64,000 nucleotides of DNA, taken from the IMG/VR virus record IMGVR_UViG_2571042390_000001. The stretch is one strand, 5' to 3'. The stretch is from a virus. Lineage: Duplodnaviria > Heunggongvirae > Uroviricota > Caudoviricetes. Made by a program: the position numbers and the translations under genes. The first letter of the stretch is position 1. Every line of letters begins with the position of its first letter. Shown one piece after another: positions 8,001-59,655 of the stretch. A model generated the notes under the pieces. It worked only from the letters and a program-made list of their open reading frames with translations, was not told where the DNA came from and ran no database searches.

Positions 8001-8024
8001 AAACCTGTTAGTGAGGCCGTAACT

Positions 8025-9153: not shown

Positions 9154-9162
9154 AGCGTGATG

Positions 9163-9671: not shown

Positions 9672-9822
9672 ATTTTTCTCCCGGTCATGGGTTAATAAGT
9701 AGGCAAACTATGGGGAGTATGTGATTTTGACGGTAGTATCGTCCCCCTGAAAATAACATTCTCCATACCCTCTCAACCGTACCGCATAGCGGAATTTTTT
9801 ACGGTTTAGAGGGGGAAATCCT

Positions 9823-16659: not shown

Positions 16660-16695
16660 CAGATAAGGAGCGGCCCCAACTGGGGCCGAATTTGA

Positions 16696-17130
16696 ATGAC
16701 GACATTAATTGACACTGTAAAACCGACGGAATCCTACCTTGAGGACATTTTGCCGCAGGCGCTCAATGGCAGGAGTGAAGAGGCGTTTCTGGATGCATAT
16801 CTGAATGGCATGGTGGAAAGGCTGAAACGAGATCCACAGCTTTATCACCTTTATGGGCCGTGGTGGCCTGCGCTTAAAACGTTATTGCTGGAGCGCGGCG
16901 ACATATCATTTGGACAAGTTGTAGATAGTGATGTGGCAGAGATCTACAAAATGAGTCGCCCGGCGCTTACGGTTTTGGCTGGGCATCTGTATTCGAGCGA
17001 TCGCCTGGAAAATGACGCGGTATACAATCCTGTTCATGCTCTGGAAGTCGCACCTTATGCCGATGATACAGAGCCATACGTGTACACAAGTTACGACGAG
17101 TCTATAGAGAAATATCGAATTATGGGGTAG
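16696..17130 (+). CDS. Hypothetical protein (144 aa)
   Basis: ORF 37 bp after darB-like stop; probably same operon. Confidence 0.45.
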   Translation: MTTLIDTVKPTESYLEDILPQALNGRSEEAFLDAYLNGMVERLKRDPQLYHLYGPWWPALKTLLLERGDISFGQVVDSDVAEIYKMSRPALTVLAGHLYSSDRLENDAVYNPVHALEVAPYADDTEPYVYTSYDESIEKYRIMG

Positions 17131-17132
17131 CC

Positions 17133-17393
17133 ATGCGAAAGAATCGTAGGTTTACGGTCGAAGACCTAAAGGAATATTCCATATCGAAGGGGTATATCCT
17201 TGAGTTCCACCGATACAAGAAGGTTTTTACGCTGCGAAAAGCAGAAAACCCTGCGAACTGGAGCTGGATATACTTTCCTCACACCGATGATAAGTTGGTA
17301 GAACTTGTTGATGATTTAACCTATGAAGGTTGGTTGATCGCAATCGACAAGACAATCAAAGAATTATCCGAACAGGATAAAATAACCCTTTAA
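17133..17393 (+). CDS. Hypothetical protein (86 aa)
   Basis: Starts 3 bp after upstream stop. Confidence 0.4.
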   Translation: MRKNRRFTVEDLKEYSISKGYILEFHRYKKVFTLRKAENPANWSWIYFPHTDDKLVELVDDLTYEGWLIAIDKTIKELSEQDKITL

Positions 17394-17529
17394 AAATAAC
17401 AGGTTGGGTAAATGCCATGCGATTTACCCTCCTTGTTGATTAAGGTCACTCTTTACTCTAAAAGCAAATCCGACCTGTTGCATATAGACCATCCTTGAGT
17501 AGTATCTCTCTTGTTTTACAAATCTAACG

Positions 17530-18024
17530 TTGTTGTTATTATTTCGCATATTTACTATCAATGGGTGTGTTAGAAAAATAGCGCGAAAGAGAAGGCGTCG
17601 CAGTGAATATTCTGAAACATCCCCACATGCCGCAGCTCTTAGAGAACTGGAGAAAAACCCAGATCTAATCAAAAGGAACCATGAGCATTACGAGCAGGTT
17701 CGCGTCCTGGACTGGATGTATCGCAATATGCGTTATGTGTATGAGCATACTCACGCCACTCCAAACGGTGGCCTGCGAGGCATAAGGACGGCAATAAAAA
17801 TGGTGGCAGAGGGCCAAAAGAAGGGATATCCCGATCTTTCTATAGACCTTGCTTGTGGGGGATACCACGGAATGCGCATTGAGATGAAACATGGGAGAAA
17901 TCGCCTGACTCCCGAACAACTCGTCTGGATGACTCGCCTCACAGAAGCCGGTTACTACTGCTTTGAGGCGCGCAGTGCCGCTGAAGCCATAAAAGCTATC
18001 ACGGAGTATGTTTGTCTTGATTAA
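17530..18024 (+). CDS. VRR-NUC domain nuclease-like protein
   Basis: KKGYPDLSIDL ... RIEMKHGRNRLTPEQ PD-(D/E)xK-type motifs; true start is probably internal to the track ORF. Confidence 0.5.
   Translation: MLLLFRIFTINGCVRKIARKRRRRSEYSETSPHAAALRELEKNPDLIKRNHEHYEQVRVLDWMYRNMRYVYEHTHATPNGGLRGIRTAIKMVAEGQKKGYPDLSIDLACGGYHGMRIEMKHGRNRLTPEQLVWMTRLTEAGYYCFEARSAAEAIKAITEYVCLD
17568..17576. promoter_or_regulatory. Operator-like motif (TGTTAGAAA)
   Basis: Core motif in 5' region of the VRR-NUC ORF. Confidence 0.4.
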
Positions 18025-18038
18025 ACGGAGAAATCGTT

Positions 18039-18239
18039 TTGCGGTTACTTAACGTGGCAGAACTTATCCCTGCAGGAACTAATGCTATCGCTCGTCGTCG
18101 CTCATGGCAGCAGGCTCTATGTATTGAGATCTCGAAACGTATCAATGGAAGTTTTGAAGCTCGCAATATTGTTACTGGCGATAAGGTTCACATAACCCCG
18201 GAAAGTGCAAGCGCTGATGATTGGGAGTTTGTACATTGA
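18039..18239 (+). CDS. Hypothetical protein (66 aa)
   Basis: Short ORF between nuclease-like gene and next ORF. Confidence 0.3.
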   Translation: MRLLNVAELIPAGTNAIARRRSWQQALCIEISKRINGSFEARNIVTGDKVHITPESASADDWEFVH

Positions 18240-18535
18240 GCAAAAAATATTATGTGAGTCTGGCGTTCGCTGACGATGCGGGGAGGACGCGGAGTATCAC
18301 GTTGAGCACACCGGTTAAGGCTGTGACAGCGCCGTTAATCCGTGAAGCTCTCAGAGAGCTGGAATTGGGGGAAAACTCGGCACTGTTGTCGGTTAGTTGG
18401 TTCGGGAAAATGTCAGAGAAACAATACGTGGATGGAGTTACCCCAATAACAGTAATGAGGCTACTTTCATTGCTGCAATGGGCCATCGTACCTGTATTTA
18501 TCGCGTATCTTATTTATCAGGCTGCAACACAGTAA
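18221..18535 (+). CDS. Hypothetical protein with C-terminal transmembrane helix
   Basis: Hydrophobic C-terminus LLQWAIVPVFIAYLIY; terminator follows. Confidence 0.4.
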   Translation: MGVCTLSKKYYVSLAFADDAGRTRSITLSTPVKAVTAPLIREALRELELGENSALLSVSWFGKMSEKQYVDGVTPITVMRLLSLLQWAIVPVFIAYLIYQAATQ

Positions 18536-18543
18536 TTGCATAA

Positions 18544-18569
18544 AAACCCGCCAATTAGCGGGTTTTTTG
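18544..18569 (+). terminator. Rho-independent terminator
   Basis: aacccgc/gcgggtt stem followed by T-run. Confidence 0.65.
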
Positions 18570-18610
18570 TTTATTGCATCTTTCGATACTGTCATCAAAC
18601 TAATAAAATA

Positions 18611-18619
18611 TGTTAGAAA
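18611..18619. promoter_or_regulatory. Operator-like motif (TGTTAGAAA)
   Basis: About 30 bp upstream of ORF 18649. Confidence 0.45.
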
Positions 18620-18648
18620 AATAATTTAACAAAGTAACGGGAATAGCA

Positions 18649-19857
18649 ATGAGTCAACACACTGATACTTCTAATCTGGAAATTATCTCGACAGCAATTG
18701 AAACGCTGCGCACACAAATCGCTCTTATACAGAAACGGAATCCGGGTGATGACCTGTCAAAGCGACTGCACGAGAGTGTCATTGCCACTACAGATAACCT
18801 GGTGGCGGAAATCAACAAGCTGCTTGATGATGGGGCAGTTGATTACAATAAGCTGGTGGATCAGTTTGAGGAATACCAACAAGCAGTTAATGATGGCTTG
18901 ATCCGTTTTTCACAAGTCACAGGCGTATCAGCGACAGTTGAAAGCCTGGGTGATGCAGTTAATCAATTTGCCGCGAATATGCGTAATGAGATCGGCAATC
19001 TGGAAGCGCGTCTTGAACAGGCAAATACACTGCGTAAATCTGCCGAAGCCGATTTGAACCGTTACAAAAAAGACTATCCGCCAAGCCTGACAAAGCGGCT
19101 GGATGTTGCGGAGAAGGATAACCGCACGCTGAAAAGAGAGCGCCGGGAACTAAAAGAGCGTTTAACCAAGCTCAATCAGCAATGCATTGATTATCAAGGC
19201 GAAGGCGTCACACTGCGTAAAAAGTTGGCTACAGCGCAGAGCATTATCGAAACATTAAAGCGAGAGTGCTCACAGCTTGGTCACGATCTGAACCGTGCTT
19301 GTGGCATGGGACAAAGACCAGAGACATTTCCACTTATGTATGATGGAAGGGATGCCATTGCCTACATCCATGAGTATCCGCACGGCCTGGTTGCGGAAAC
19401 TGGGCAGCGTGGCGAAGCACTGCTGACGGCTAATTACCATCAACAAATCAGAACCAATCGCCTGTTAACGATGGATGTGATCCCATCGGTATGGGGAACG
19501 CCGCTTTACTATCGCCTGCCGGGCTTCGAAAAGGACTGGAATACCGACATAGACGAATGTCTCGCAGATAAAATTATGGCGTATCTGGAGACGGATTTTC
19601 CGCGCTTATATCGCCGGATTATGGACTCTAAGGATGCGCCAATCGATGAATTAAAAATGCGTCCGGAGACGCTGGAGGCAATCAAGCAGACGGAGTTTGA
19701 TACTGTATTCAGTGTGGCCTGCATTCCAAGCTGTTTCCATGAAAGCATCCCGTTCATGCAAGGAGATCGTCGTCAGGAAATCATTGACGCTTGCCGGGTA
19801 TGGGCGAACGAATGGGATAAGAAGAATGGGGGTGTAGAAGATCTTTATGGGAAATAA
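18649..19857 (+). CDS. Hypothetical coiled-coil protein (402 aa)
   Basis: N-terminal heptad-rich half, globular C-terminal half; operator-like motif upstream. Confidence 0.5.
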   Translation: MSQHTDTSNLEIISTAIETLRTQIALIQKRNPGDDLSKRLHESVIATTDNLVAEINKLLDDGAVDYNKLVDQFEEYQQAVNDGLIRFSQVTGVSATVESLGDAVNQFAANMRNEIGNLEARLEQANTLRKSAEADLNRYKKDYPPSLTKRLDVAEKDNRTLKRERRELKERLTKLNQQCIDYQGEGVTLRKKLATAQSIIETLKRECSQLGHDLNRACGMGQRPETFPLMYDGRDAIAYIHEYPHGLVAETGQRGEALLTANYHQQIRTNRLLTMDVIPSVWGTPLYYRLPGFEKDWNTDIDECLADKIMAYLETDFPRLYRRIMDSKDAPIDELKMRPETLEAIKQTEFDTVFSVACIPSCFHESIPFMQGDRRQEIIDACRVWANEWDKKNGGVEDLYGK

Positions 19858-20509
19858 TGTGTTAGAAATCTAAAATCACAATTCGAATGTATTGATTGTG
19901 AAGATAACTTAACATAGAATTTTCCTTGCTGGTGGGCGGTACCCACGTTTCGCTTGCTGGGCTTGATAGTCACTTATTGGTTATTGTTCGCCCACCAGCA
20001 TTTAACAAATTAAAGTGTTAGAAATGTATAGTAATGCAAGAGCACGCTTTGGCACCGTGCAGGCCAAAGTTCAGCAGGTTTAGTGCGGAAAGTGGTTTCA
20101 GAGAGAGCACTTTGCGGAGTAAACGACAATACATGTTGAGCCACGGAAGGTCTTTTTAAGGTGTTCATTGATGATGGTCCGGCAGAGAGTAACGGTACAT
20201 GCTGCATCTAATCATCAATGCACATCTTCAACATTAAGGAGGCATAGGGATTTTTGTGGCGGTTACCTTTTGCCCTGAGTCTCCTTAATGTTGCGGTAAT
20301 GCACCTATGCGGATGTGGCCTTGCATTGTGTCTTGAAAGAATGGGGTAAGGCCGGGGATATCCCCAGGGGGAGGCACCCCCGCTGCAACGAACAGCCACA
20401 GACGGCAGTCGAGTGATGGAAACGTGTAAAGACTTTAAACCTCGTTACGGCTGGCGTGGCAAACGCGACAACCGAGACAGAGCGGTGACGGGCGGAGAGA
20501 GTGCCGCAT

Positions 20510-20631
20510 CAAGAAAGAAGCCGACTTGTGATCCCTTTCAGCGGGCATTTGAAAGTGAATCCAGCTCAGGCAGTCGGCTTCTTTCTTGTGTGAGATGTAG
20601 CGTATTTGCCCATCTTCGGGTGGGCTTTTTT
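20510..20631 (+). ncRNA. Candidate structured small RNA (long hairpin plus intrinsic terminator)
   Basis: 17-bp stem caagaaagaagccgact/agtcggcttctttcttg with nested hairpin, then gcccatc/ggtgggc stem and T6. Confidence 0.3.
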
Positions 20632-21092
20632 AGGGTTTTCGTCATGGTTAGCGACTTTGCGGCGGTTTAGAAACTGACCATTAAAGTAAATGCAAACGAT
20701 GATCTGATGATGGTAGCGGCCTAAGAAGCCAGACGCCACGGGGTATGAGTCGTCCCCCGTCAAAAAAATCGACCGCAGAGTGTCCCCGTCTGTGTATTAG
20801 GGAACGGGGAGGCATAACAGGCAAGGGCGCTGGTGTGATTAACCAGATGAATGAGAAGGGTCAGGTCTTTCTGGTCAGCGCCCTTACCTGTTGCGTCCTT
20901 CCCGCGTAACAGCCATTGCTTAATGGCATCCTGGGAGAACTTCTTGTAACGGGTATATCCCGTCATGCTGAAGGCGCTAATCACGCTGGAAGCCAGGGTT
21001 GTGCATCCCCTGTTACCGAATTGCAGCCAGGGCGCGGTGCGCCGAAAAGCATACGGAGGTGGAAGCCCTCGCCGGAGACGTACCCGGCAAGT

Positions 21093-21167
21093 GATGGTGT
21101 AGCTCAGCGGTAGAGCAGTTGGCTGTTAACCAACTGGTCGGTGGTTCGAATCCACCCACCATCGCCA
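21093..21167 (+). tRNA. tRNA-Asn (anticodon GTT)
   Basis: Cloverleaf: acceptor GATGGTG/CACCATC, T-arm GGTGG-TTCGAAT-CCACC, anticodon loop CTGTTAA, 3' CCA. Confidence 0.8.
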
Positions 21168-21172
21168 ATTTA

Positions 21173-21259
21173 GGGGAGTTAGTCCGTAGGGGTAGCGGGG
21201 TAGACTGTAAATCTACTGTCATTGCGACTCGGGTGGTTCGACTCCATCACTCCCCACCA
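21173..21259 (+). tRNA. tRNA-Tyr (anticodon GTA), long variable arm
   Basis: Acceptor GGGGAGT/ACTCCCC, anticodon loop CTGTAAA, type II variable arm, 3' CCA. Confidence 0.7.
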
Positions 21260-21263
21260 AATT

Positions 21264-21339
21264 GCCGGTTTAGCTCAGTTGGTAGAGCAGTCGCTTTGTA
21301 AGCGAATGGTCAGCGGTTCGATCCCGTTAACCGGCACCA
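21264..21339 (+). tRNA. tRNA-Thr (anticodon TGT)
   Basis: Acceptor GCCGGTT/AACCGGC, D-arm TAGCTCAGTTGGTAGAGC, anticodon loop TTTGTAA, 3' CCA. Confidence 0.8.
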
Positions 21340-21408
21340 ACACAACAGGTAAGAGCATTTGTAGAGTTCGACTCTCTACCGTGGGCTTTTTCCCGCGATG
21401 CGAGCCAT

Positions 21409-21439
21409 AAATGCTCTTACCGTTGTGATGAAGTGCAGC
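21409..21439. repeat. tRNA-array-associated repeat, copy R1
   Basis: aaatgctcttaccgttgtgatgaagtgc; 3' strand of a long hairpin that follows tRNA-Thr. Confidence 0.4.
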
Positions 21440-21650
21440 TCTTTGAAGCAACCAGAAGATAAGCATCTGGCTTCACAACATAAACCGCAGGAACGACCAA
21501 TAAACGGTAGTCCGTATGGAGAACACCCCGTTGAGGAAGAGGTCTGGCCGGAACCGTAACCGGCACTACAACGTTGAGAACACTGGCGTAACGGGGTCAT
21601 ATCCCAATCTACGAATAAATGTTGCGTTGCAGCGTGACAACCAGTGTTCT

Positions 21651-21674
21651 CAACATTGTGGTGAATGCGCAGGC
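21651..21674. repeat. tRNA-array-associated repeat, copy R2
   Basis: caacattgtggtgaatgcgcaggc; preceded by inverted repeat gttgagaacactgg/ccagtgttctcaac. Confidence 0.35.
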
Positions 21675-21793
21675 TGATGCGCGAAAGACATTGCAGCTAT
21701 TGCGGAAAAGAGCTGTTCGGCGGGGCAATTAAACGCCCGTGAGAGTCTGAAATAACCGCAAGCCGGAGATCAGCACCGGTCGCCACAATAACG

Positions 21794-21880
21794 GGAGAGT
21801 AGGGAGCATGGTGCTCAAGCGGTCTTGAAAACCGTCCCATTGCGCAAGCGATGATGGTTCGATTCCATTACTCTCCGCCA
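21794..21880 (+). tRNA. tRNA-Ser (anticodon TGA), long variable arm
   Basis: Acceptor GGAGAGT/ACTCTCC, anticodon loop CTTGAAA, type II variable arm, T-loop TTCGATT, 3' CCA; position 8 atypical. Confidence 0.6.
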
Positions 21881-21974
21881 GTGCAACATTAAGGGTATTT
21901 GGCTAATTAAGCGAATGCCGGAAGCAGAACCGGATCACCAAATGCGTACAGGCGTCATCGCCGCCCAGTCAGCC

Positions 21975-22004
21975 AAATGCTCTTACCATTGCGGTGAATG
22001 CGGC
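21975..22004. repeat. tRNA-array-associated repeat, copy R3
   Basis: aaatgctcttaccattgcggtgaatgcggc; follows tRNA-Ser. Confidence 0.4.
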
Positions 22005-22171
22005 TAAGCGCACGCGGAACAGTTAAAACAGTAAAGGTGGTCTTTTTACTGGCGTAACGAGAATCCATAAGTGATCCGGCGTTAATTGTTAACTGGTTAA
22101 CGTCACCGGGAGGCGCCCGGCACCGCAACCTAACAGCAATGGCGTTTTGTCTTAAAAGGTGGCTGCAAGTG

Positions 22172-22300
22172 ATGGATTTTTGGGCGTTTGCCGATAAAAA
22201 CCCGGAGTGGACATTATTGTTTCTGCTGGTGGTTGCATACGGGGTAGAGCAAGCGGCAAAAGCCTTACGCGGTTCTGGCAAAAAGCGTAAGCGTAATTAA
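22172..22300 (+). CDS. Small hydrophobic ORF (42 aa) inside the tRNA cluster
   Basis: AGGTGG RBS 8 nt upstream of ATG; predicted TM segment WTLLFLLVVAYGV and basic tail; below track size cutoff. Confidence 0.25.
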   Translation: MDFWAFADKNPEWTLLFLLVVAYGVEQAAKALRGSGKKRKRN

Positions 22301-22309
22301 CAGTAATCT

Positions 22310-22385
22310 GGCCCTTTAGCTCAGTGGTTAGAGCGGGCGACTCATAATCGCACGGTCACCGGTTCAAGTCCGGTAGGGGCCACCA
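22310..22385 (+). tRNA. tRNA-Ile2-like (anticodon CAT; may read AUA after lysidine modification, or be tRNA-Met)
   Basis: Near-identical in outline to E. coli ileX-type tRNA: GGCCC(T)TTAGCTCAGTGGTTAGAGC ... CTCATAA ... GGTTCAAGTCC ... CCA. Confidence 0.75.
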
Positions 22386-22607
22386 CATTTGGTTGTAACA
22401 CGGCGTATGGCACATGCGTCGTTAGCGGTCTGGTGTAGCTGTTAGGTACCTTTTACTAACACTGCATGGGCACACCAGGTAGCCGGAATGTGCAAGCCCC
22501 GTTCATAGCGTCGGACTGCGGATTCACCATCCTGGCGATTCGGTGTGACAGCCGGAAGAGCACGGCGCACAACAGGAAAAGGCGTTTAATTAGCGTGAGC
22601 GCCGTTT

Positions 22608-22633
22608 CCGTTGTGGTAATTGCGGCTATGCGC
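22608..22633. repeat. tRNA-array-associated repeat, copy R4
   Basis: ccgttgtggtaattgcggctatgcgc; downstream of tRNA-Ile2. Confidence 0.35.
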
Positions 22634-22837
22634 TCGTGACGAAGCCATTTTCATTCACTACGTTCTGATAAGTGACGTCGCCAGGAGTGGCTAACCTGGC
22701 AGGTGGAGGCACCACCGCCACAACTCCTTTCAATTCATCATATAGCCGCTCAGGCTGTACCCCTTAATTAATACGAAGTTACGACATCACTACCGGTACT
22801 TCCGGGGGATAGTCGCGCGTGTAAAAAAGGAAACGTT

Positions 22838-23413
22838 ATGTTAATGGCGAACGATAACGCATATACAGAAGAAGATCTCATTTTGAGTGACTTCATAGGG
22901 AAGCGTGAACGCTGGACCCAAAAGCGAGAGGAAATTTACGCCTCATTAGTTCGCAAAGGCGTCAATATCGAAACCGCACAGAGCGGCGATATGACAGTGG
23001 TAAGCGTTGGATTGCACGGTGTAAGCGTGTCAGCAATCAATCATGAGCCATACGTTGCGTTATCCGAGTCAATGGTAAGGTTAGTTAAGTTCCTGAAATA
23101 CACAGAAGCGAATAATGTAATCATTGGCAAAAAGAATATCCCTTTTTCCTCGGCTTTTTACTGGATGATGAAAGGGCTTGATGCCCGGCGGACATCATGG
23201 CCCAAAGGGAGCTATATATCGATGTTCCGTGGCAGTATTGGCAGCAAAGAAAAGCTCTTCGAATTCTTGCCGGAAGAGGCATTCGATATTGTGGAAGGGT
23301 GCGATGTGATGGTGATGCCTCGCCTGGTAATGATGAATGGGGATTTACAGGCGCAGACAGACTGGTTTGCAACTGGTGTGGATATTATCGCGACTGACTG
23401 GGAGGCTTTCTGA
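22838..23413 (+). CDS. Protein with C-terminal DUF2829 (Tad2-family)-like domain (191 aa)
   Basis: C-terminal AFYWMMKGLDARRTSW ... DIIATDWEAF matches the DUF2829 pattern. Confidence 0.5.
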   Translation: MLMANDNAYTEEDLILSDFIGKRERWTQKREEIYASLVRKGVNIETAQSGDMTVVSVGLHGVSVSAINHEPYVALSESMVRLVKFLKYTEANNVIIGKKNIPFSSAFYWMMKGLDARRTSWPKGSYISMFRGSIGSKEKLFEFLPEEAFDIVEGCDVMVMPRLVMMNGDLQAQTDWFATGVDIIATDWEAF

Positions 23414-23805
23414 TGTACGGGACTACCAAATTAAGCACTCAACAGGCCACCAATATGGAGTGGTCTATCGCTAACTGTAAGATCGAGTCATGCAATGCCA
23501 CGCGTACTGATGTGGGCCATAAAAGCACTATAACAGGCTATCTAGTAATGACCACCAGGGGGATAAGGGTTAGATTTCGCTGGAAAGCAGAGCAAGTAAC
23601 CCCATTCAGAGAGCCATCAATGCCGCTGCAGGTTGAGCAGGATTATCTATGTTTACCAGAAATAGATGGAGGAATGCTGGTGGAGTCTGATGGTAGTAAG
23701 GCTGATTTTGAAGCCAATTTGAAGCTGGCACAGGCCGTAATCAATAGTTATCGCGGACAGTGGATCGCAAAAGTGAAACATGTTGTTCGTTTGTCTCGCT
23801 GGTAG
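23413..23805 (+). CDS. Hypothetical protein (130 aa)
   Basis: Start overlaps upstream stop. Confidence 0.4.
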   Translation: MYGTTKLSTQQATNMEWSIANCKIESCNATRTDVGHKSTITGYLVMTTRGIRVRFRWKAEQVTPFREPSMPLQVEQDYLCLPEIDGGMLVESDGSKADFEANLKLAQAVINSYRGQWIAKVKHVVRLSRW

Positions 23806-23826
23806 CATTAGATATTTAGTATTAAT

Positions 23827-23835
23827 TTTCTAATA
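23827..23835. promoter_or_regulatory. Operator-like motif variant (TTTCTAATA) upstream of lpa-like gene
   Basis: P1 lpa is a known C1-controlled gene; same position here. Confidence 0.4.
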
Positions 23836-23913
23836 CATTCATCTTTTTACCAGTCTATACAGTTTTAACATTCTCATTATCATCCCCTCGGTCATTTCCT
23901 GCCCGGGGGATTA

Positions 23914-24306
23914 ATGGAACAAATCAGCAGCGCAGAAATTGCGGATATCATGATCAGGGCTGACTGCTATCTGACAGTCACTGAAATTACCACTCTCGCC
24001 AAAGAAAAATACCCTCATCTCCATGTTTCACGAGTAAGTGTAACTAACATCATTCGTCATTTTGTTCGTTCAAGCAGGGCAATCTGTGAGCTTGATGATC
24101 GTGTTTACCCACGAAAATACTGGTTGCATGGCCTGAACGGATATCAGTTCAAGGTGCGTGGGCGAACCCCTGAATATGGCAGTTTACTGGTTAAAAACTG
24201 TAGCAGGAAATCAGTCGAACAGGCGCGAAAAGAGCAACGAGAGCTGGTGGACATGGCGAATAAGCTGTGGAATGCCGCCGTTAAAAAGCGTGGTGTTGCT
24301 TTATGA
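23914..24306 (+). CDS. Hypothetical protein; possible late-promoter activator (Lpa-like) by synteny only
   Basis: Immediately upstream of pacA-like/pacB-like genes, as lpa is in P1; operator-like motif upstream. Confidence 0.4.
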   Translation: MEQISSAEIADIMIRADCYLTVTEITTLAKEKYPHLHVSRVSVTNIIRHFVRSSRAICELDDRVYPRKYWLHGLNGYQFKVRGRTPEYGSLLVKNCSRKSVEQARKEQRELVDMANKLWNAAVKKRGVAL

Positions 24307-25667
24307 GTCTGGTTAATTGGGAGGAGCACCGCGCCCGCTTTATAGCGTTGCGTGAAGAAAAAGGGATCACTGTAAAGGAATACTGTGAGGAGCATGGCCT
24401 TAGCTTCAATACAGCCAGAAAGCATCTCAATATGAAAAAAAATGAGGTGCGGTCGCAGGTAAAGACAACAAAAAAAAGCACCAAATCACCTGAAAAAAAA
24501 CGGGCGGGAAGAGCAACAAAAAAGCTGGAAGAGGGTGCAGAAAAAACAAAATTTACAGAAATTGACAATTCGCAGGGCGCAGGTTCTTTCCGAAGTATGC
24601 CGAGAAAGAAAACTTCGGATCATGAAAATAATTCAAATAATAACAATGAGATAAAAGAATCTGTCAGGAGATCATTGCGCGAAAAAATGGCGAAAATGAT
24701 CCCCGAAGAAGATAAAAACGCCCCAAAAATTGAGGGATCTTCTGCAATGATCCCTGACGGTGCTGTGCAGCGTGCCACATTGCCAACTACGAATGTGGCT
24801 CGCGATATGATGAAGAACGGCGCAGAAGAACACCTGCGGTTAGCAATTCAAATGGCGCAAGAGCGCGCACTTCAGTATCAAAGCATTGTTGATCAGGAGG
24901 CCGAACGTCTACAGGCGGAAATAGACGCCTTGGGCGATAAAGAGCCAGAAGGAATGCACCCTGGGCAGCGCCTTCTCGGTCTAATCAGTGACGCGGCCTA
25001 CTACATGAATGATTTTATCAGTAGGTTGGCAGCTATATATCAGTCCGAACAAAAGCTGCGACAGGGGGATGAAAAGCTTCGTCAGAGCGCTCGCCAGCAA
25101 GCATTCAAAGAGGCTGAGGCCAGAGAAAAACTCGAATTAGCACGCCTACAGGCCGAACAGCGTGGCAAAGAGATTGAATATCGCATTGGCGCTGACGCAC
25201 GCGCAGCCAGAGTTATCGCCGCCGCTATACGTATGCGTGAGCGCGAGGAACTGGATGATATCGGTGTTGCTGAATACATCGAGCGCCAGGGTGTCAGCGT
25301 CCCGGCTATCCTCGCGGCGCGCGCGGCGAAAGCTATCACTCTTCTCGAACCACCTGTTTCTGACGTCAATGATGTTGATGATGAACAGCTGGACAAAGAG
25401 GCAAGGGAGTTTGCAACGCTTCAGGCTAACCATCCGCAATGGCTGGCAGAGCGCCGGGCGGATGTGGCAACCATTGTTGAAGAATTGGGGTGCGGAGATT
25501 ACGACCGCAATGGCGAGCGTAAAGCTGGAGAATTCGAGGCCAACGACGAAGAGCTGGATATTGACCCTTCGGCAACGGCTGAAATTTACGGTGATTATGA
25601 TGCATCTGATGCAGGGTATGACGCCGGAGATGATGATATCGCGATAGAACCGCCGGAGGATGATTAA
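24303..25667 (+). CDS. pacA: Terminase small subunit, PacA-like
   Basis: N-terminal HTH-like region, charged/acidic C-terminus, stop overlaps start of the large subunit; internal GATC cluster. Confidence 0.55.
   Translation: MSLVNWEEHRARFIALREEKGITVKEYCEEHGLSFNTARKHLNMKKNEVRSQVKTTKKSTKSPEKKRAGRATKKLEEGAEKTKFTEIDNSQGAGSFRSMPRKKTSDHENNSNNNNEIKESVRRSLREKMAKMIPEEDKNAPKIEGSSAMIPDGAVQRATLPTTNVARDMMKNGAEEHLRLAIQMAQERALQYQSIVDQEAERLQAEIDALGDKEPEGMHPGQRLLGLISDAAYYMNDFISRLAAIYQSEQKLRQGDEKLRQSARQQAFKEAEAREKLELARLQAEQRGKEIEYRIGADARAARVIAAAIRMREREELDDIGVAEYIERQGVSVPAILAARAAKAITLLEPPVSDVNDVDDEQLDKEAREFATLQANHPQWLAERRADVATIVEELGCGDYDRNGERKAGEFEANDEELDIDPSATAEIYGDYDASDAGYDAGDDDIAIEPPEDD
24610..24760. other. 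Candidate pac site (cluster of GATC-containing hexamers inside pacA-like gene)
   Basis: Five GATC sites within about 135 bp, including repeated AATGATCCC. Confidence 0.3.
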
Positions 25668-27175
25668 TGGCTGGCGGGCGCAAGATTAAATGCGTCACCA
25701 GCGATCCACGCTGGCGCGATATGGTAATCAAATACCGCTACAACTTTACCCAGGCTGTAGTCGATATTTTTGGGATGTTCCCCTCCCACCAGCAGCAGCA
25801 GATCATTCAGTCAGTGCAGGAAACGGGGAGTAGGACGACCGTCACGTCCGGACACGGAACGGGGAAGTCGTCCCTTACCGCGATGTTGCTGTTGATTTTT
25901 ATGATCCTGTTCCCCGATGCCCGTGTCATCATTGTTGCTAACAAGATAGGCCAGGTAAAAACAGGCGTATTCAAATACGTTAAACAGTATTGGGCGAATG
26001 CAGTTAAGCGTCATGGGTGGTTGCAGACCTATTTTGTCCTCTCTGACACCATGTTTTATGAGCGCTCCCGTAAGGGGATTTGGGAAGTTCTCTGCAAAGG
26101 TTATCGACTCGGCAACGAAGAAGCGCTGGCGGGGGAACACGCGGCACATTTGCTTCTAATTCTGGATGAAGCATCTGGTATATCTGATAAGGCGATCGGC
26201 GTAATGACCGGTGCTCTTACTGAAGAAGATAACCGGATGTTGATGCTATCCCAGCCAACAAGGCCAAGTGGTTATTTCTACGATTCGCACCATTCTCGAG
26301 CAAAAACCCCAGACAACCCGAAAGGGATCTGGACAGCAATTGTTCTTAACTCGGAAGAATCACCGTTCGTCACACCACAATTCATCAAGGAGAAGCTTCT
26401 GGAATATGGTGGGCGCGATTCTATTGAGTACATGGTCAAGGTGCTTGGTCAGTTCCCACGAGAAATTAACGGCTATTTGCTTGGTCGTGATGAATGCGAT
26501 CGCTCTGCTCGCCGCAAGGTGTTGTTGGAGAAAAACTGGGGATGGGTGGCAACGGCTGACGTTGGTAATGGGCGAGATAAGTCGGTCCTCAACATCTGCA
26601 AGGTATCAGGTCACAGGGATAAGCGGCGCGTTGTTAACTTTAAGGTAATGGAGATGCCTGGCACTATGGACCCATTGGCCTTTGCTGACTTCATATATAA
26701 CGAATGTACGCCGGAAAAATACCCGAATATAACAATCGCGGTTGATGCTGATGGTTTTGGTTCTGATACGTGTGCGCAGTTGGTGCGTCGTGGTGCGAAC
26801 CCGGTACGTATTCGGTGGGGAAAACCCATGTTTGCGAACAAAGACAGGGAGCGATTTGTTAATCAGCGTGCCTACGCAAATATTATGGCGCGAGATGCCA
26901 TAAAGTCAGGGCGTATGCGGATAGACAGTGACCCTAAAACGGCAGAGCAAGCGTCAAAAATCCCCTTTTTACTGAATGAAGAAGGGAAAATGGCGATGAT
27001 GCGCAAAGAGCACATGCGGCAAAAGCTAAACATCAAATCGCCTGACCGATGGGATACCTACTGCTTCACTATGCTGGTGGACTATGTGCCTGCTAATGAA
27101 GATATTGGTGCCGAAATGGCAACTTTCCGAGATCAGGTTCTGGCGGATATCGAAATGCCGGATCTGGATATATAA
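25667..27175 (+). CDS. pacB: Terminase large subunit, PacB-like
   Basis: Walker A SGHGTGKS and Walker B LLILDEASGISD. Confidence 0.8.
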   Translation: MAGGRKIKCVTSDPRWRDMVIKYRYNFTQAVVDIFGMFPSHQQQQIIQSVQETGSRTTVTSGHGTGKSSLTAMLLLIFMILFPDARVIIVANKIGQVKTGVFKYVKQYWANAVKRHGWLQTYFVLSDTMFYERSRKGIWEVLCKGYRLGNEEALAGEHAAHLLLILDEASGISDKAIGVMTGALTEEDNRMLMLSQPTRPSGYFYDSHHSRAKTPDNPKGIWTAIVLNSEESPFVTPQFIKEKLLEYGGRDSIEYMVKVLGQFPREINGYLLGRDECDRSARRKVLLEKNWGWVATADVGNGRDKSVLNICKVSGHRDKRRVVNFKVMEMPGTMDPLAFADFIYNECTPEKYPNITIAVDADGFGSDTCAQLVRRGANPVRIRWGKPMFANKDRERFVNQRAYANIMARDAIKSGRMRIDSDPKTAEQASKIPFLLNEEGKMAMMRKEHMRQKLNIKSPDRWDTYCFTMLVDYVPANEDIGAEMATFRDQVLADIEMPDLDI

Positions 27176-27176
27176 A

Positions 27177-27193
27177 GCCCCGCGATGCGGGGC
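27177..27193 (-). terminator. Terminator-like hairpin between convergent pacB-like and c1-like genes
   Basis: gccccgc/gcggggc stem; A/T-rich run on the minus-strand 3' side. Confidence 0.4.
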
Positions 27194-27202
27194 CGGTTGT
27201 GA

Positions 27203-28240
27203 TTACCAGAGCTTCGCGGCGTACTGCGTTTGGGGGAATGTGTATCCGTAACGTTCTTCGATTGCTTTGCCGTATTTTTTACGAGCTTCATTCAGTTTTA
27301 TGCCGGTCAGGTCGTCTCCAGAGGCCATCATTACGTCTAACAATTCCAGATCCATTTTATCCAGCCTTGCCATTGCTTCACGTGATGTACGTATCTTACG
27401 CTCAATGATATGGCGAATAGCCGGATCGGCATCCTCCAGCATCTTAGCGGATTTCTGCTTAAGGCTTTCATTGCGAATATCGATGTTCCTTAAGATGTAC
27501 GACTTCGCAACGTAGCTTGGCTGGTGTTTTTCCAGGTCACGAACACGATATAAGTTAAAATCGCCGAGAAGGCTGCAAGGTACCGATTCGACGCCAGAAT
27601 AAATTGTAATGCTCCGGCGCTCACCAACATTATTGACAACGGGGATCGTTGTCTTCGGTAGTCTTGCGAAAACCAATGCGCCATGTGCGCCAACTCTAAA
27701 GCGAGAAAGGGCATTGCTGCCTTCGATGTTTGTTGTCAGCACAACATCTGTATATGCCTCTTTACGCGCCCGGTAGATCTCGCCTTCAGGCTCAGCTTCA
27801 AAGAAGCGCTGTTCTTCTTCAAGAGCACCTACGATTTGAGAAAAAACCCTATTTTTCAGGCTTTTCTTTATGATTTTGTCGTATTTTTTGAGCAATTGTT
27901 CACGTGTAAATGTACGTGTTGTTGTAGCGCTTTGCACAACAACATGCGTGCTTTGATTGGTGTCCTCAATGATGAATGGGATCGGAGAATATACAGACTC
28001 AACAATGTTCGACGCTTTGCCGTCGGCATCGCGGCACATGTCAACGAAGGCTTTCCATTCAGCAAGACATTTTTCAGCTTCTTCTAATATGTTTTGGTCA
28101 TGCGTTAATGCAACATGGCGGAATTCCTCGCCAGCATAACTGGTATCATGGAAAACAGAGTTTGCGACCACCAGCTCTTTCCACCGTTCAGCGGTTTGCA
28201 GGAACCGTTTGTACTCTTTCTCGATCGACTTCTTACTCAT
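27203..28240 (-). CDS. Hypothetical protein (345 aa); candidate C1-like repressor by position
   Basis: Sits between pacB-like and lox-cre as c1 does in P1; operator-like motif directly upstream; no sequence-level confirmation. Confidence 0.4.
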   Translation of the reverse strand: MSKKSIEKEYKRFLQTAERWKELVVANSVFHDTSYAGEEFRHVALTHDQNILEEAEKCLAEWKAFVDMCRDADGKASNIVESVYSPIPFIIEDTNQSTHVVVQSATTTRTFTREQLLKKYDKIIKKSLKNRVFSQIVGALEEEQRFFEAEPEGEIYRARKEAYTDVVLTTNIEGSNALSRFRVGAHGALVFARLPKTTIPVVNNVGERRSITIYSGVESVPCSLLGDFNLYRVRDLEKHQPSYVAKSYILRNIDIRNESLKQKSAKMLEDADPAIRHIIERKIRTSREAMARLDKMDLELLDVMMASGDDLTGIKLNEARKKYGKAIEERYGYTFPQTQYAAKLW

Positions 28241-56465: not shown

Positions 56466-57257
56466 ATGGGCCGTTTTGACGAATGGTTTGCTGACGATGC
56501 AAACCTGGCAAGTAAGGAGTCAGAACATGACAGCACGCAGAGAGAAACGCCAGCGCCGATTGAAGCGAATGCAGGAGGCGCGCCGGAACATGGCAATACC
56601 GGTTCGGATTCATTCAGCATTCTGGAAGAGCAACCCGCCGCCAAAGCTGATAGCCATGATAATTTTGCTGATAGCAACGGTGGCCTTACTCCGGATGCTG
56701 GCGAATCAGATATAGCCATACTTCCATCTTCCCTGGCTGGCAGAGAACCGACTCCACAGTTAAAAGCACGCTATAACGGGCATAAAGCCTTTAACGACCA
56801 AATCCGCGCAGACTGGATGCTGATTATTGAATCCAGCCCAGACGCGTTTCAGGCTCTCTTATATCGACCAGATGTTGGCACATATGGGGTAGTCAGCGAC
56901 GAAACAGGAGAAGAGTCATTCACTGAACTGGATAACAACCAACGCGAACTGACTTACCAGGAACCTGAAATCGTTTATGTGCTGGATAACCCTGACGGGC
57001 GTGACTCTTTCCATGCGATTGACGCAGACGGTGAGCAGGATGGCTTAACCGATGATGTTCTGATTCTGCGTATTGCAGCAAATAACGTCCCCGTCGGCTC
57101 AATTCTTGAATGGAATGAAGAGATGGTAAACGGCGTAGCGCGCCGCTGGTGGTACGTGCACCGTATTTTTAGCTACGGCACACAGCATGTTGGTTCGCTT
57201 TACTACTGCATACCTGCCAGGAATTTTGATACGACTCAAAACGGAGTGATCGAATGA
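56466..57257 (+). CDS. Hypothetical protein (acidic N-terminal half)
   Basis: ATG with GAGGA RBS; first of four tightly linked plus-strand ORFs. Confidence 0.4.
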   Translation: MGRFDEWFADDANLASKESEHDSTQRETPAPIEANAGGAPEHGNTGSDSFSILEEQPAAKADSHDNFADSNGGLTPDAGESDIAILPSSLAGREPTPQLKARYNGHKAFNDQIRADWMLIIESSPDAFQALLYRPDVGTYGVVSDETGEESFTELDNNQRELTYQEPEIVYVLDNPDGRDSFHAIDADGEQDGLTDDVLILRIAANNVPVGSILEWNEEMVNGVARRWWYVHRIFSYGTQHVGSLYYCIPARNFDTTQNGVIE

Positions 57258-58021
57258 CTTCAAATAAAACCCTCCTGGCGCGAACAGGTGAATGGCAAAC
57301 CTCACGCACAGGAAAATTCCAGACCACGGGCTTTGAAAACGTGGATAACGCGTTTGCGACGCTAATCAGCAACATTTTTTCTGATATCTTACTGGTGGCC
57401 CCCGCGCCGGAAGAAAAACGCTTTGCGTCATTCCTGAATCGTCCACCAGCAGAGCGTGTCTATGTGGCCCGTTTCGACAATGCGATCGAGTTTCTTAAAG
57501 CAGTTCGTCGCGCAAATGCCGGGCAAGGGAGAAAACCTGAAAACCAGAACATTAACCGGGATGCTCTCCCCCTGGTCAATATCTCACGCACTATGGATAT
57601 CAATTATATCAACGATGATCAGCAGATTGACCGCAAAAAAGTAGCCAGTTTTTGCGAACCGGATACCGGAATGCCTTTAGCAGAACTGGAATACACCCAG
57701 GCCATTCTGACGTATGACGTTACGTTAATGGCAACTGATAAAGCGACCATGAGTCTGATGTGTAATTCGCTGGGCGCACGGCTTCGCCTGATGACAGGTA
57801 CACAATTTGAAGCAACCACTCACCTTGTTCGTGTCCCGGTCCCGCTGATTTGCTCGATACAGGATGCCAAAGAAGTCGGCTTTACGGATGTTTCAGCACC
57901 AATTGGAGAAGAGCGTATTTATGCCACACAAGCGCCGATAAGTGTGATTGCAGACGTGATCACAGCATGGGAGTTGGACGCAAAACGTATTATTACCGAA
58001 ACCTCGATATCTATGGGGTGA
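57254..58021 (+). CDS. Hypothetical protein (255 aa)
   Basis: Start overlaps upstream stop. Confidence 0.45.
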   Translation: MTSNKTLLARTGEWQTSRTGKFQTTGFENVDNAFATLISNIFSDILLVAPAPEEKRFASFLNRPPAERVYVARFDNAIEFLKAVRRANAGQGRKPENQNINRDALPLVNISRTMDINYINDDQQIDRKKVASFCEPDTGMPLAELEYTQAILTYDVTLMATDKATMSLMCNSLGARLRLMTGTQFEATTHLVRVPVPLICSIQDAKEVGFTDVSAPIGEERIYATQAPISVIADVITAWELDAKRIITETSISMG

Positions 58022-58024
58022 TAA

Positions 58025-59005
58025 GTGGCCCAGGAGTTACAACAATATTTTCTACAGTCAGTGCTCATTAACGATAACAAAGTGCCTCGAGACTGGATTT
58101 TTACCGCAGTATATGTAGAAAAAACCAGCCTCAAAGCCCCTTTGCTAAAACTGGAAATTCATGACGCTACCGGCACCGTAATTGATGACTGGAAAGCCAA
58201 ATACGGTGCATCGCTGGTGGCTGAAATGGGCGATCCAAACGGTAATGCAGGCACTTTTAAAACAGATTTCTTTGTTACGTCTGCAATGCTGGCTGGTGAT
58301 GTTGTTACCGTTATTGCTGTCAGTGAAGACGTGCGCAGGTTTAAGATCCCCTCCCCGCGCACAAATTTACATACCAACAAAACACCAGACGCTATATTCA
58401 AGGCATATTCCGGCAAGCTTAAAATTACCAGCAGCGTGCTAAAACGCGCAGTTACATATCATCTGAATGCCGGTGACAAACCGTCAAAAATGCTTTCGGA
58501 GATAGCGCGAGACAAAGGTGCATTATGTTGGGTATGCCGGGGGGAATTTAACTTTTACACCCTGGCTGATCTGATGAAGCAAACGCCATCATTTACCTAC
58601 GAGGGGAATAACCCTAAAGCAGAATACACTTTGTCCAAAATGCGCCTACTCCAACAGGAACATGCGACAACAGCAAAGAATCAATATCGTTTTGTTGGGT
58701 ATTCCATGACCGATGGCTACGTCGAATATGGCGATAGCTCACTCCCAGTGCGTTATATATCCGACTCTGATATGGAAACTCTTCGCAATATGCAGCTGTC
58801 TCTCGTCCCCAAAATGGATATAGAAGTCGCAGGCAATCCTGATATAAAACCGGGGATGGTAATAGAGATTATCGTATACCGCTATGACCAGGAAAACCGC
58901 ATTGATGAATCAATGCCCCGTAAGCTGATAGTAAAAAATGTTGCGCACTTTGAGGACCGCGTAGGCTACACAACACGAATGATATTAGGAGTGCCGAACA
59001 AATGA
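58025..59005 (+). CDS. Hypothetical protein (326 aa), possible baseplate/tail-associated
   Basis: Context only: immediately upstream of gpV-like spike ORF. Confidence 0.45.
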   Translation: MAQELQQYFLQSVLINDNKVPRDWIFTAVYVEKTSLKAPLLKLEIHDATGTVIDDWKAKYGASLVAEMGDPNGNAGTFKTDFFVTSAMLAGDVVTVIAVSEDVRRFKIPSPRTNLHTNKTPDAIFKAYSGKLKITSSVLKRAVTYHLNAGDKPSKMLSEIARDKGALCWVCRGEFNFYTLADLMKQTPSFTYEGNNPKAEYTLSKMRLLQQEHATTAKNQYRFVGYSMTDGYVEYGDSSLPVRYISDSDMETLRNMQLSLVPKMDIEVAGNPDIKPGMVIEIIVYRYDQENRIDESMPRKLIVKNVAHFEDRVGYTTRMILGVPNK

Positions 59006-59655
59006 AGCGTAGAGCGCAAATTGTTGGAACTGTGCACCCGGCAGGGCTTATGCGTGCTCAAGTCCGTGTTTTACCTGACTGGAATGGCGTTCCTGATGAC
59101 GATCTACCCTGGGCGGAATACCTGTTACCCATCGGAAACGCTTTTGTACCCACAGTCAAAGGTGACCTGGTCTGGGTAGAGTTTCCTTATTTAGATGTTA
59201 ACGGTCGAATAGACACCAGACGCCCAATGATAGTTGGTGCCGCTCAGGATGCACCGGGAGGAATTCCAAACGTTGCACCAGAAGCATCTGGCAAAGGCAA
59301 CGGCTGGACGCCGCCGGAAGTAGATGGAGCACCTCCCCGCCCCCAAATCTCAGCAACGAAAGACTTCGTTATTCACCGCAACAATATTCTTGAAGTACGA
59401 ACTGCTGGTGGCGGCTATGAAATTGCCAATACGGCAGCAGGCTCAAGGATTGGCATGAATGAGTCCGGGCAGATATATATCATTGGTCCGGCTGATGTAA
59501 TCGTGAATGCAGGAGGGAGTGTTAACGTCAAATCAGCCAACAACATCAATGTTAATGGGGAAAATATTGCTGTCACCGCTAACGGGGACATAGCTTTCAA
59601 GGCAGGGGGAACCTTTCAGGCCACTGCTGGCAACTTCGATTTCAAGAAAGGATAG
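59002..59655 (+). CDS. gpV/gp5-like baseplate spike-type protein
   Basis: N-terminal VKGDLVWVEF ... RRPMIVGAA OB-fold-like motif and C-terminal G/N/V-rich beta-helix-like repeats. Confidence 0.5.
   Translation: MKRRAQIVGTVHPAGLMRAQVRVLPDWNGVPDDDLPWAEYLLPIGNAFVPTVKGDLVWVEFPYLDVNGRIDTRRPMIVGAAQDAPGGIPNVAPEASGKGNGWTPPEVDGAPPRPQISATKDFVIHRNNILEVRTAGGGYEIANTAAGSRIGMNESGQIYIIGPADVIVNAGGSVNVKSANNINVNGENIAVTANGDIAFKAGGTFQATAGNFDFKKG

Follow-up and report, generated by a model that had tools for sequence, protein, structure and literature searches.

In a 64,000-nucleotide stretch of DNA from a virus of the Caudoviricetes (IMG/VR record IMGVR_UViG_2571042390_000001; hereafter the window), four tightly linked genes stand directly upstream of hrdC-dmt, and the question raised by this locus is whether they encode one spike or injection subassembly and whether they are counterparts of upfB, upfC and uhr of phage P1, as a sequence-only reading had proposed. 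In this study, we observed that the four genes are orthologs of P1 genes 7, 24, 6 and 5 in a D6-like phage-plasmid, as orthology and fold both show, and we hold with high confidence that the region is the distal part of a P1-type late tail operon, 26-25-7-24-6-5. The last gene was rightly called a spike, in a locus that is ordinary and already annotated. The features discussed below are collected in Table 1.

Table 1. Features of the late tail locus and its neighbourhood, in window positions.
Feature	Position	Strand	Description
Gene 26 homolog	52782-53111	+	Baseplate plug (T4 gp53-like); heads the ancestral operon
Gene 25 homolog ('tail stability')	53104-54297	+	98% identity to D6 orf74, 56% to P1 gp25
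Terminator-like hairpin	54309-54331	+	Just 3' of the gene 25 stop codon; 9-bp stem with 5 GC pairs, then a T-rich tail
Inserted cassette	54333-56303	-	Splits the operon between genes 25 and 7
orf73-like protein	54333-55124	-	Cassette member
HTH/HigA-like protein	55176-55535	-	Cassette member
HigA	55592-55930	-	Cassette member
HigB toxin	56001-56303	-	Cassette member
Candidate D6-type late (Lpa-dependent) promoter of genes 7-24-6-5	56404-56424	+	Box AAATCACA, 7-nt spacer, -10-like GAAAAT
ORF1, gene 7 homolog	56466-57257	+	Stopper (head-completion protein), predicted hexamer, linking adaptor to tail terminator
ORF2, gene 24 homolog	57254-58021	+	Tail terminator, predicted hexamer, capping tube and sheath
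ORF3, gene 6 homolog	58025-59005	+	Baseplate hub, predicted trimer, T4 gp27 / Mu gp44 class
ORF4, gene 5 homolog	59002-59655	+	Central spike/needle, predicted trimer, OB-fold then predicted beta-helix
Gene 5-hrdC spacer	59653-59714	+	Sigma-70-like promoter TAGAAA-18-GATAAT
hrdC (RdgC family)	59715-60620	+	Pfam RdgC, 5e-103
dmt	60532-62760 (ORF)	+	Bifunctional C5 and N6 methyltransferase; MethyltransfD12 1e-55, DNA_methylase 6e-37

Matches to PHROGs (E 4e-46 to 3e-144), to solved P1 proteins in PDB sequence searches (Gp7, 6e-43; Gp24, 1.6e-14; Gp6, 8e-72; Gp5, 2e-55) and to 596 plasmid records indicate that the four ORFs are real genes and not chance ORFs. A direct Pfam scan of the four proteins gave nothing beyond a sub-threshold DUF2345 match for the spike, and the informative results came from the PHROGs, from sequence searches of the PDB and from Pfam scans at the family level. 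The window is about 95-98% identical to phage-plasmid D6 and collinear with it over 52.7-64 kb; the gene coordinates (56466-59655) correspond exactly to D6 orf69-orf66, whose products are 98.9-100% identical to the four proteins and carry the annotation 'similar to P1 gene 7/24/6/5'. The close coupling of the genes on the plus strand was confirmed, with ATGA overlaps between ORF1 and ORF2 (57254-57257) and between ORF3 and ORF4 (59002-59005) and with 3 nt separating the end of ORF2 (58021) from the start of ORF3 (58025). The ATG of ORF1 has GAGGA upstream, and the mechanical ORF list begins 12 nt earlier, at a TTG. The spike had been proposed to be encoded apart from the main tail cluster, which is correct and likewise true of P1, where tail genes are scattered (PMC9024508). 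The accompanying remark that wedge and fibre genes are missing nearby holds in part: by colinearity with D6 the main tail, baseplate and fibre clusters lie outside the window, and the homologs of genes 26 and 25 are found 2.2-3.7 kb upstream.

With respect to the spike, ORF4 displays 99.5% identity to D6 orf66 and 46% to P1 gp5 (PDB 9vzk_q, E 2e-55). The two motifs from which an OB-fold-like N-terminus had been read, GDLVWVEF (residues 54-61) and RRPMIVG (residues 73-79), are both found in the protein and lie on invariant columns of the family (D55, V57, W58, F61, P62, R73, P75, I77 and G79), and the C-terminus, described as G/N/V-rich, is indeed rich in G, N, V and A over its last 70 residues. 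The AF2 model (pLDDT 94.6) matches P1 gp5 of the solved baseplate (9vzk_q, Foldseek E 1.7e-21, TM 0.74/0.77) in a full-length alignment of 216 columns, followed by the spikes of eCIS, AFP and PVC, the T6SS VgrG, the R2 pyocin spike, phi92 gp138, P2 gpV and the Mu spike, which bears out the call of the last ORF as a central spike. The model aligns to the OB domain and the needle of 9vzk_q, VgrG and P2 gpV. PF04717 is matched by 25 of the 41 aligned family members (best E 3e-10), with the window protein itself below the Pfam threshold, and the matches to DUF2345 and Gp5_C are weak. The AF2 monomer has no DSSP strands after residue 161 (the last ~55 residues), and a C-terminal beta-helix would be expected from homology to the trimeric P1 gp5. 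No lysozyme family was matched by the 217-residue protein or in the Pfam scans of its family, so that a lysozyme domain of the T4 gp5 type is missing, and P1 gp5 is likewise without one (PMC9024508, PMC12810830). ORF4 is a central spike of the gpV/gp5/VgrG class, with an OB-fold, a predicted beta-helix and no lysozyme domain.

The first two genes have predicted roles at the other end of the tail. ORF1, which is 99% identical to D6 orf69 and belongs to phrog_1906, is homologous to the solved P1 head-tail stopper (PDB 9ums_B, Gp7, E 6e-43) over residues 101-260, the C-terminal 160 residues; its N-terminal ~100 residues are of low complexity and align poorly to P1 gp7, this part being acidic and divergent in both proteins, which share an MGxFDxxF start. 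The stopper role of gp7 comes from the P1 cryo-EM study (PMC12810830). ORF2 is identical (100%) to D6 orf68, and its profile finds P1 Gp24 (8jan_y) with E 5e-33, as compared with 1.6e-14 for the plain sequence. Its AF2 model (pLDDT 76.7) has 8jan_A as best Foldseek match (E 1e-20, TM 0.78), with T4 gp15 (4huh/4hud) and the T5 p142 terminators next, and displays the terminator core fold of T4 gp15 and P1 gp24, the latter being the P1 tail terminator (PMC10304247). Stopper and terminator are expected to sit head-proximal on the tail, which contradicts the proposal of one spike or injection subassembly; therefore, the hub-spike subassembly would be formed by the last two genes only, and the first two would function at the tail's head end.

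ORF3 is 99.7% identical to D6 orf67 and 38% to P1 gp6 over the full length, and at the sequence level it is homologous throughout to a solved hub (9vzk_1, Gp6, residues 6-325 against 16-337), which places it with T4 gp27, Mu gp44 and P1 gp6. The D6 GenBank record labels it 'putative tail tape measure protein', several plasmid records write 'tail length tape measure protein' after the old P1 'tail length' phenotype, and P1 gene 6 mutants do show variable tail lengths (cited in PMC9024508). We nevertheless consider it very improbable that ORF3 is the tape measure: P1 Gp6, which it matches over its full length with E 8e-72, was modelled as a trimeric hub bearing tube-like domains in two cryo-EM studies of the baseplate (PMC12810830; bioRxiv 10.1101/2025.07.21.665459) and was regarded as baseplate hub, not tape measure, in PMC9024508 as well. 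A tape measure is long, mostly helical and scales with the tail, whereas the 326 residues of this hub homolog are too short for a P1-type tail span, just as the 338 residues of P1 gp6 were judged too short (PMC9024508), and D6 possesses its own Sit homolog (orf40, 1260 aa, 3.8 kb). Even less credence can be given to the idea that the four ORFs correspond to P1 upfB, upfC and uhr and together form a spike or injection subassembly beside hrdC-dmt. The three P1 genes do adjoin hrdC, and UpfC is the spike tip and UpfB the tripod on that tip (PMC12810830). However, none of the four proteins is significantly similar to UpfB, UpfC or Uhr (best BLASTP E 0.13, in a four-sequence database), tblastn found no upf or uhr homolog anywhere in the window, no PAAR/gp5.4-like tip is encoded in it, D6 carries its upfB and upfC homologs separately (orf56 and orf57, about 7 kb past dmt), and ORF1 is a neck protein and ORF2 a terminator. 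The suggested homology thus gives way to orthology with P1 genes 7, 24, 6 and 5, and the link between spike and upf genes survives as synteny: in relatives, hrdC-dmt is flanked by gene 5, for the spike, and by upfC-upfB, for the spike tip, the latter pair following just past hrdC-dmt and sharing the strand of gene 5. The upfC gene stands downstream of gene 5 or of dmt in these relatives, and D6 orf57 falls outside the region covered by the window.

Again, the genes upstream extend the operon. The gene 26 homolog is 100% identical to D6 orf75 and 41% to P1 gp26, matching Gp26 in the PDB (9ay5_S/9vzk, E 1e-16) and phrog_1269, a baseplate wedge subunit. The gene 25 homolog has an invariant CDC-x38-CKH motif, which six homologs share, and its C-terminal tail is rich in K, A and Q; neither a solved homolog in the PDB nor a Pfam family was found for it. 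The order 26-25-7-24-6-5 is contiguous in P1, in JK004 and in a Yersinia ruckeri element, all of which are without the cassette at this position. The window holds the same genes in the same order as the P1 late operon, and departs from its uninterrupted form by the 2-kb antisense cassette between genes 25 and 7 and by the absence of a P1-type Lpa box. Pfam recognizes HigB-like_toxin (4e-35) and HTH_3 (7e-11) in the cassette, and D6 annotates orf70-73 at this place. The ancestral operon is split by a minus-strand HigB/HigA cassette.

Such a split could mean that 7-24-6-5 is a relic decaying in a defective plasmid prophage, cut from its promoter by the toxin-antitoxin insertion and no longer expressed, and both the antisense cassette with the terminator-like hairpin between genes 25 and 7 and the lack of any P1-type late promoter box would agree with this. 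We judge it very improbable, as D6, which was obtained from an E. coli lysogen, propagated as a phage and sequenced (PMC6799933), has the split arrangement too, all four ORFs are coupled and undamaged, with 99-100% identity to their D6 counterparts, and a conserved candidate late promoter precedes gene 7. Moreover, an Enterobacter plasmid shows this arrangement again, with another toxin-antitoxin pair and protein identities of 67-74%, which indicates purifying selection.

For the distal part of a split late tail operon, then, the candidate promoter lies 42 nt upstream of gene 7 with a predicted transcription start near 56431. Under a position weight matrix (PWM) trained on nine other D6 sites it scored 21.0 bits, the fourth best in the window, compared with a maximum of 18.7 in 30 shuffles. 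Its -10 element begins with G. The core is kept in the Enterobacter plasmid, the remaining spacer has diverged, and the score there falls under the scan threshold. On this motif evidence, 56404-56424 may serve as a promoter. A P1-type PWM, built from eight annotated P1 late promoters and run over the window and D6, gave nothing convincing before gene 26, gene 7 or other D6 late genes, and a P1-type late promoter was rejected for the D6 lineage; the best such box in the window (14.2 bits) is not upstream of genes 26 or 7 and is within shuffle expectation. The window Lpa is about 31% identical to P1 Lpa, which fits with the missing P1-type boxes. A P1-type box at L002 6521-6539 falls within P1 gene 7 rather than in front of it and was taken as chance, and no claim is made for a D6-type box before gene 26 of the window, which is weak (11.5 bits) and within the shuffle range.

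Downstream of the spike gene, the hrdC-dmt accessory cassette occupies 59715-62760. The promoter in the spacer overlaps an inverted repeat with 14-bp arms, CCATTTGTGTTAGA...TCTAACACAAATGG, which may act as a repressor operator of hrdC-dmt. In D6, genes 23, pmgS and lpa are preceded by related TGTTAGAAAA-like sequences, and the equivalent operon of P1 has a C1 operator (Odmt) and Pdmt. The adjacency of hrdC-dmt to the spike gene is probably a matter of genome rearrangement and cassette insertion, not of shared function.

In P1, gp7 is the stopper, gp24 the terminator, gp6 the hub, gp5 with UpfC the spike, UpfB the tripod and gp26 the plug (PMC12810830); cryo-EM shows gp7 and gp24 as hexamers and gp6 and gp5 as trimers, the gp6 trimer, gp5 needle and UpfC tip are also described in bioRxiv 10.1101/2025.07.21.665459, and CRISPRi showed genes 5, 6, 24 and 7 to be essential (PMC10695390). 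Taking over from P1, at 22-46% identity, both the oligomeric states and the places in the virion, we suggest that the gp7 homolog would form a hexameric stopper, closing the head-tail connector and docking onto the tail terminator, and the gp24 homolog a hexamer that caps the tube of the tail and its last sheath ring. The gp6 homolog would be a trimeric hub that mediates the step from the six-fold tube to three-fold symmetry, and beneath it the gp5 homolog would form a trimeric OB-fold and beta-helix needle that sheath contraction pushes through the outer membrane, with the tip (UpfC, PAAR-like) and the tripod (UpfB) presumably encoded elsewhere. The HigB/HigA cassette and the hairpin would separate 7-24-6-5 from 26-25 in this lineage, and the four genes probably have an Lpa-dependent late promoter to themselves and are probably coupled in translation.

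The D6-type late box and the synteny of the hrdC-dmt cassette are possibly undescribed so far. D6-lineage phage-plasmids may use the late box A(A/T)(A/T)TCACA-N7-NANNNT, unlike the AAGTNACTT-N4-TANNNT of P1, which might match an Lpa only about 31% identical to that of P1, and one copy may let 7-24-6-5 be expressed independently after the toxin-antitoxin split. The ancestral operon may also have read ...6-5-upfC-upfB (hub, spike, tip, tripod), with hrdC-dmt as a cassette between spike and tip genes that is intact in the Yersinia and Enterobacter elements, more expanded in D6 and inverted in P1. To both propositions jointly we assign an even chance. The significance of the locus is small outside annotation hygiene: the product names 'tail tape measure protein', 'baseplate' and 'hypothetical protein' in D6 and some plasmid records are outdated, and the P1 cryo-EM structures justify stopper, tail terminator, hub and spike in their place. 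In the split operon, which has a candidate late promoter to itself, a toxin-antitoxin cassette sits inside an essential structural operon without disabling it, and the synteny suggests that hrdC-dmt is an insertion in an ancestral hub-spike-tip module.

Compared with known systems, the spikes of P2 gpV, T4 gp5, T6SS VgrG and the R-pyocins (PF04717, Phage_base_V) likewise have an N-terminal OB-fold, followed by a beta-helical needle of the kind predicted for the window spike, and Foldseek probabilities of the window spike to 3qr8, 4s37, 8gra and 4mtk reach 0.99-1.0 at a sequence identity of only 12-18%. T4 gp5 has a lysozyme domain and VgrG a fused gp27-like module, both lacking in the window spike, whose tip would be a separate PAAR-like protein (UpfC), whereas the tip is fused in P2 gpV (PMC12407873). 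D6 (MF356679.1 / NC_050154.1; Gilcrease & Casjens 2018) agrees with the window in genes, order and coupling, as well as in the HigB/HigA cassette upstream and hrdC downstream. Unlike D6, the window has an additional higB-higA pair, which lies between mat and gene 26 at about 52055-52689, and its dmt is an intact 742-aa ORF, as against two shorter ORFs in the D6 record; the D6 names 'tail tape measure' for the hub and 'baseplate or tail' for the terminator are out of date. The P1 late operon (PDB 9UMS, 8JAN, 9VZK, 9AY5) encodes orthologous proteins in identical order at 22-46% protein identity, and shares the terminator fold and a spike of OB-fold and, as predicted for the window, beta-helix without lysozyme. 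It differs in its late box (AAGTNACTT-N4-TANNNT in P1, the candidate AAATCACA-N7-NANNNT in the window), and it runs uninterrupted from LP26 (AAATGACTA-N4-TAGAAT), whereas the window operon is split by the toxin-antitoxin cassette; P1 gene 5 is followed by convergent dbn-ban, and gene 5 of the window by hrdC-dmt.

The four tightly linked plus-strand genes, with spike motifs in the last, that the sequence-only reading had described were confirmed by their coordinates, junctions and motifs. Two ATGA start/stop overlaps, one 3-nt gap and a GGAG or GGGG ribosome-binding site at each start form the usual signature of translational coupling of ORF1-ORF4. The ATG chosen as the start of ORF1 is preceded by GAGGA, and the mechanical ORF list has a TTG 12 nt further upstream. 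The motifs GDLVWVEF and RRPMIVG were found in the ORF4 protein, on invariant columns of the family alignment.

Feature coordinates in the window and, where stated, in phage D6
Feature	Position	Strand	Remarks
lpa	23914-24306		late-promoter activator
Second higB-higA pair	~52055-52689	+	Pfam HigB-like_toxin 1e-20, HTH_3 4e-10
Gene 25 homolog	53104-54297	+	invariant CDC-x38-CKH motif
Terminator-like hairpin	54309-54331		after gene 25
Inserted cassette	54333-56303	-	orf73-like protein, two HTH/HigA-like proteins, HigB toxin
Candidate D6-type late-promoter site	56404-56424		42 nt before gene 7 ATG; PWM 21.0 bits
ORF1	56466-57257	+	gene 7 homolog
ORF2	57254-58021	+	gene 24 homolog
ORF3	58025-59005	+	gene 6 homolog
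ORF4	59002-59655	+	gene 5 homolog (spike)
dmt	60532-62760	+	single 742-aa ORF, C5-cytosine and N6-adenine methyltransferase domains
glnS (glutaminyl-tRNA synthetase; D6 orf62 homolog)	62809-63990	-	runs past window end
Candidate late-promoter elements, window	3702, 9727(-), 9751, 50971, 56404		D6 lineage; upstream of late genes
Candidate late-promoter elements, D6	25241, 31531, 38135, 45511, 54144, 56918, 72120		

Escherichia phage D6, a P1-like plasmid prophage, shares 95-98% identity with the region, and the entire window is collinear with D6 27329..1 / 91159..60395 in reverse orientation. Matches to the region also came from 596 PLSDB plasmids, most of them non-mobilizable E. coli plasmids of 90-97 kb. 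A fragment of glnS at the window end could be mistaken for chromosomal flank; it is phage-borne, as in D6. The proteins of ORF1-ORF4 are 98.9-100% identical to D6 orf69, orf68, orf67 and orf66, which carry annotations of similarity to P1 genes 7, 24, 6 and 5, and share 46%, 22%, 38% and 46% identity with P1 gp7, gp24, gp6 and gp5, respectively. Solved P1 chains were matched by ORF1 (Gp7, 9ums_B, E 6e-43), ORF3 (Gp6, 9vzk_1, E 8e-72), ORF4 (Gp5, 9vzk_q, E 2e-55) and ORF2, the weakest sequence link of the four (Gp24, 8jan_y, E 1.6e-14; 5e-33 with the family profile). The four-gene feature is real and already known: the D6 record annotates these genes, PHROGs place them among tail proteins, and structures of their orthologs have been solved.

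The spike call for the last ORF was correct, as P1 gp5 is matched by both sequence and fold. The AF2 model of ORF4, built from 41 homologs (pLDDT 94.6), has P1 gp5 in the baseplate as its top Foldseek match (E 1.7e-21, TM 0.74/0.77), followed by the central spikes of eCIS, AFP and PVC particles and T6SS VgrG, and further by the R2 pyocin spike, phi92 gp138, P2 gpV and the Mu spike. Of the 41 family members, 25 matched the OB domain of phage and T6SS injectors (Pfam PF04717). No lysozyme domain was found in ORF4; P1 gp5 also lacks one, and the tape measure Sit probably carries the muralytic activity (PMC9024508). The ORF2 model (pLDDT 76.7) best matches P1 gp24 (E 1e-20, TM 0.78), with T4 gp15 and further tail terminators next.

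In P1, cryo-EM identified gp7 as the hexameric stopper joining the adaptor PmgC to the terminator, gp24 as the hexameric tail terminator, gp6 as the trimeric hub, gp5 as the trimeric spike with a monomeric UpfC cap and UpfB tripod, and gp26 as the plug (PMC12810830; PMC10304247; bioRxiv 10.1101/2025.07.21.665459); HHpred and proteomics had earlier moved gp6 from 'tail length' to hub (PMC9024508). By analogy with these roles, the hub-spike unit would comprise ORF3 and ORF4 only, ORF1 and ORF2 presumably acting at the other tail end, so that the proposed four-gene spike or injection subassembly holds for its last two members and fails for the stopper and terminator.

The suggested homology to P1 upfB, upfC and uhr was refuted, as ORF1-ORF4 show no resemblance to UpfB, UpfC or Uhr and the window encodes no homolog of these three; D6 upfC (orf57) and upfB (orf56) both lie past its end. 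A Yersinia ruckeri locus (JAJIBS010000013.1, 4324-12549) carries mat-26-25-7-24-6-5-hrdC-dam-upfC-upfB on a single strand, and a distant Spartinivicinus element (locus L011, 7992-10028) has 6-5-PAAR side by side. From these orders, hub, spike, tip and tripod genes most likely stood in one ancestral run, and hrdC-dmt is a cassette that came to lie between those for spike and tip. An Enterobacter plasmid has the Y. ruckeri order plus a toxin-antitoxin cassette, with upfC uncalled; D6 has glnS and partition genes as further insertions between dmt and upfC, and in P1 the block between spike and upf genes is larger and inverted. Such a history would explain why the spike stands beside hrdC in the window and the upf genes stand beside it in P1; they are linked by position rather than by homology.

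Genes 26-25-7-24-6-5 are uninterrupted in P1, Cronobacter phage JK004 and the Y. ruckeri element, whereas the window, D6 and the Enterobacter plasmid have a minus-strand cassette that separates gene 25 from gene 7. In the window it lies antisense inside an essential tail operon (by CRISPRi in P1, genes 5, 6, 24 and 7 score as essential and 25 and 26 do not; PMC10695390), and its orf73-like ORF is coiled-coil/membrane-like. The different HigB/HTH pair at the same junction in the Enterobacter relative suggests an insertion hot spot. The second higB-higA pair, followed by the hairpin GTCACCAGGCCTGGTGAC, occupies a ~720-bp segment between mat and gene 26, against just ~50 bp at this place in the D6 reference. 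The motif of the gene 25 homolog is SWIM-zinc-finger-like, is kept even in the Spartinivicinus homolog, and accompanies a C-terminal tail rich in K/A/Q; no solved homolog was found, and neither P1 cryo-EM study places the protein.

Between gene 5 and hrdC, a 59-bp spacer (59656-59714) holds a sigma-70-like promoter overlapping an inverted repeat with perfect 14-bp arms, CCATTTGTGTTAGA ... TCTAACACAAATGG. P1 has a similar, repressor-controlled arrangement in Pdmt/Odmt, so hrdC-dmt looks like a unit with regulation of its own. The repeat is possibly a D6 C1-repressor operator; related TGTTAGAAAA-like sequences also precede 23, pmgS and lpa in D6. Both dmt domains share one ORF in the window, as in P1, and the D6 reference has two shorter ORFs; DNA similarity to D6 is lost over ~60620-61930, where the D6 segment is shorter (~730 bp).

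P1 late promoters, extracted from its annotation, read AAGTNACTT-N4-TANNNT, which was found before no late gene of D6 or the window. Inspection of D6 upstream regions revealed a different common element, AAATCACA-N7-NANNNT, preceding prt, lydA, R, mat, 23, upfC, ddrB, pmgB and a lysozyme-like gene; D6 has 23 copies of the box AAAT[CA]ACA, where shuffled sequence leads one to expect 7.3. With a position weight matrix (PWM) trained on these nine sites, the site before gene 7 ranks fourth in the window (maximum over 30 shuffles, 18.7 bits), and the Enterobacter plasmid keeps its core, the remaining spacer having diverged. We infer from sequence a candidate late promoter for gene 7. The lineage-specific box and the cassette history are of modest residual novelty, and the D6 genome paper may already have them. 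The window Lpa is identical to that of D6 and only ~31% identical to P1 Lpa, which makes a changed late-promoter box in the D6 lineage plausible.
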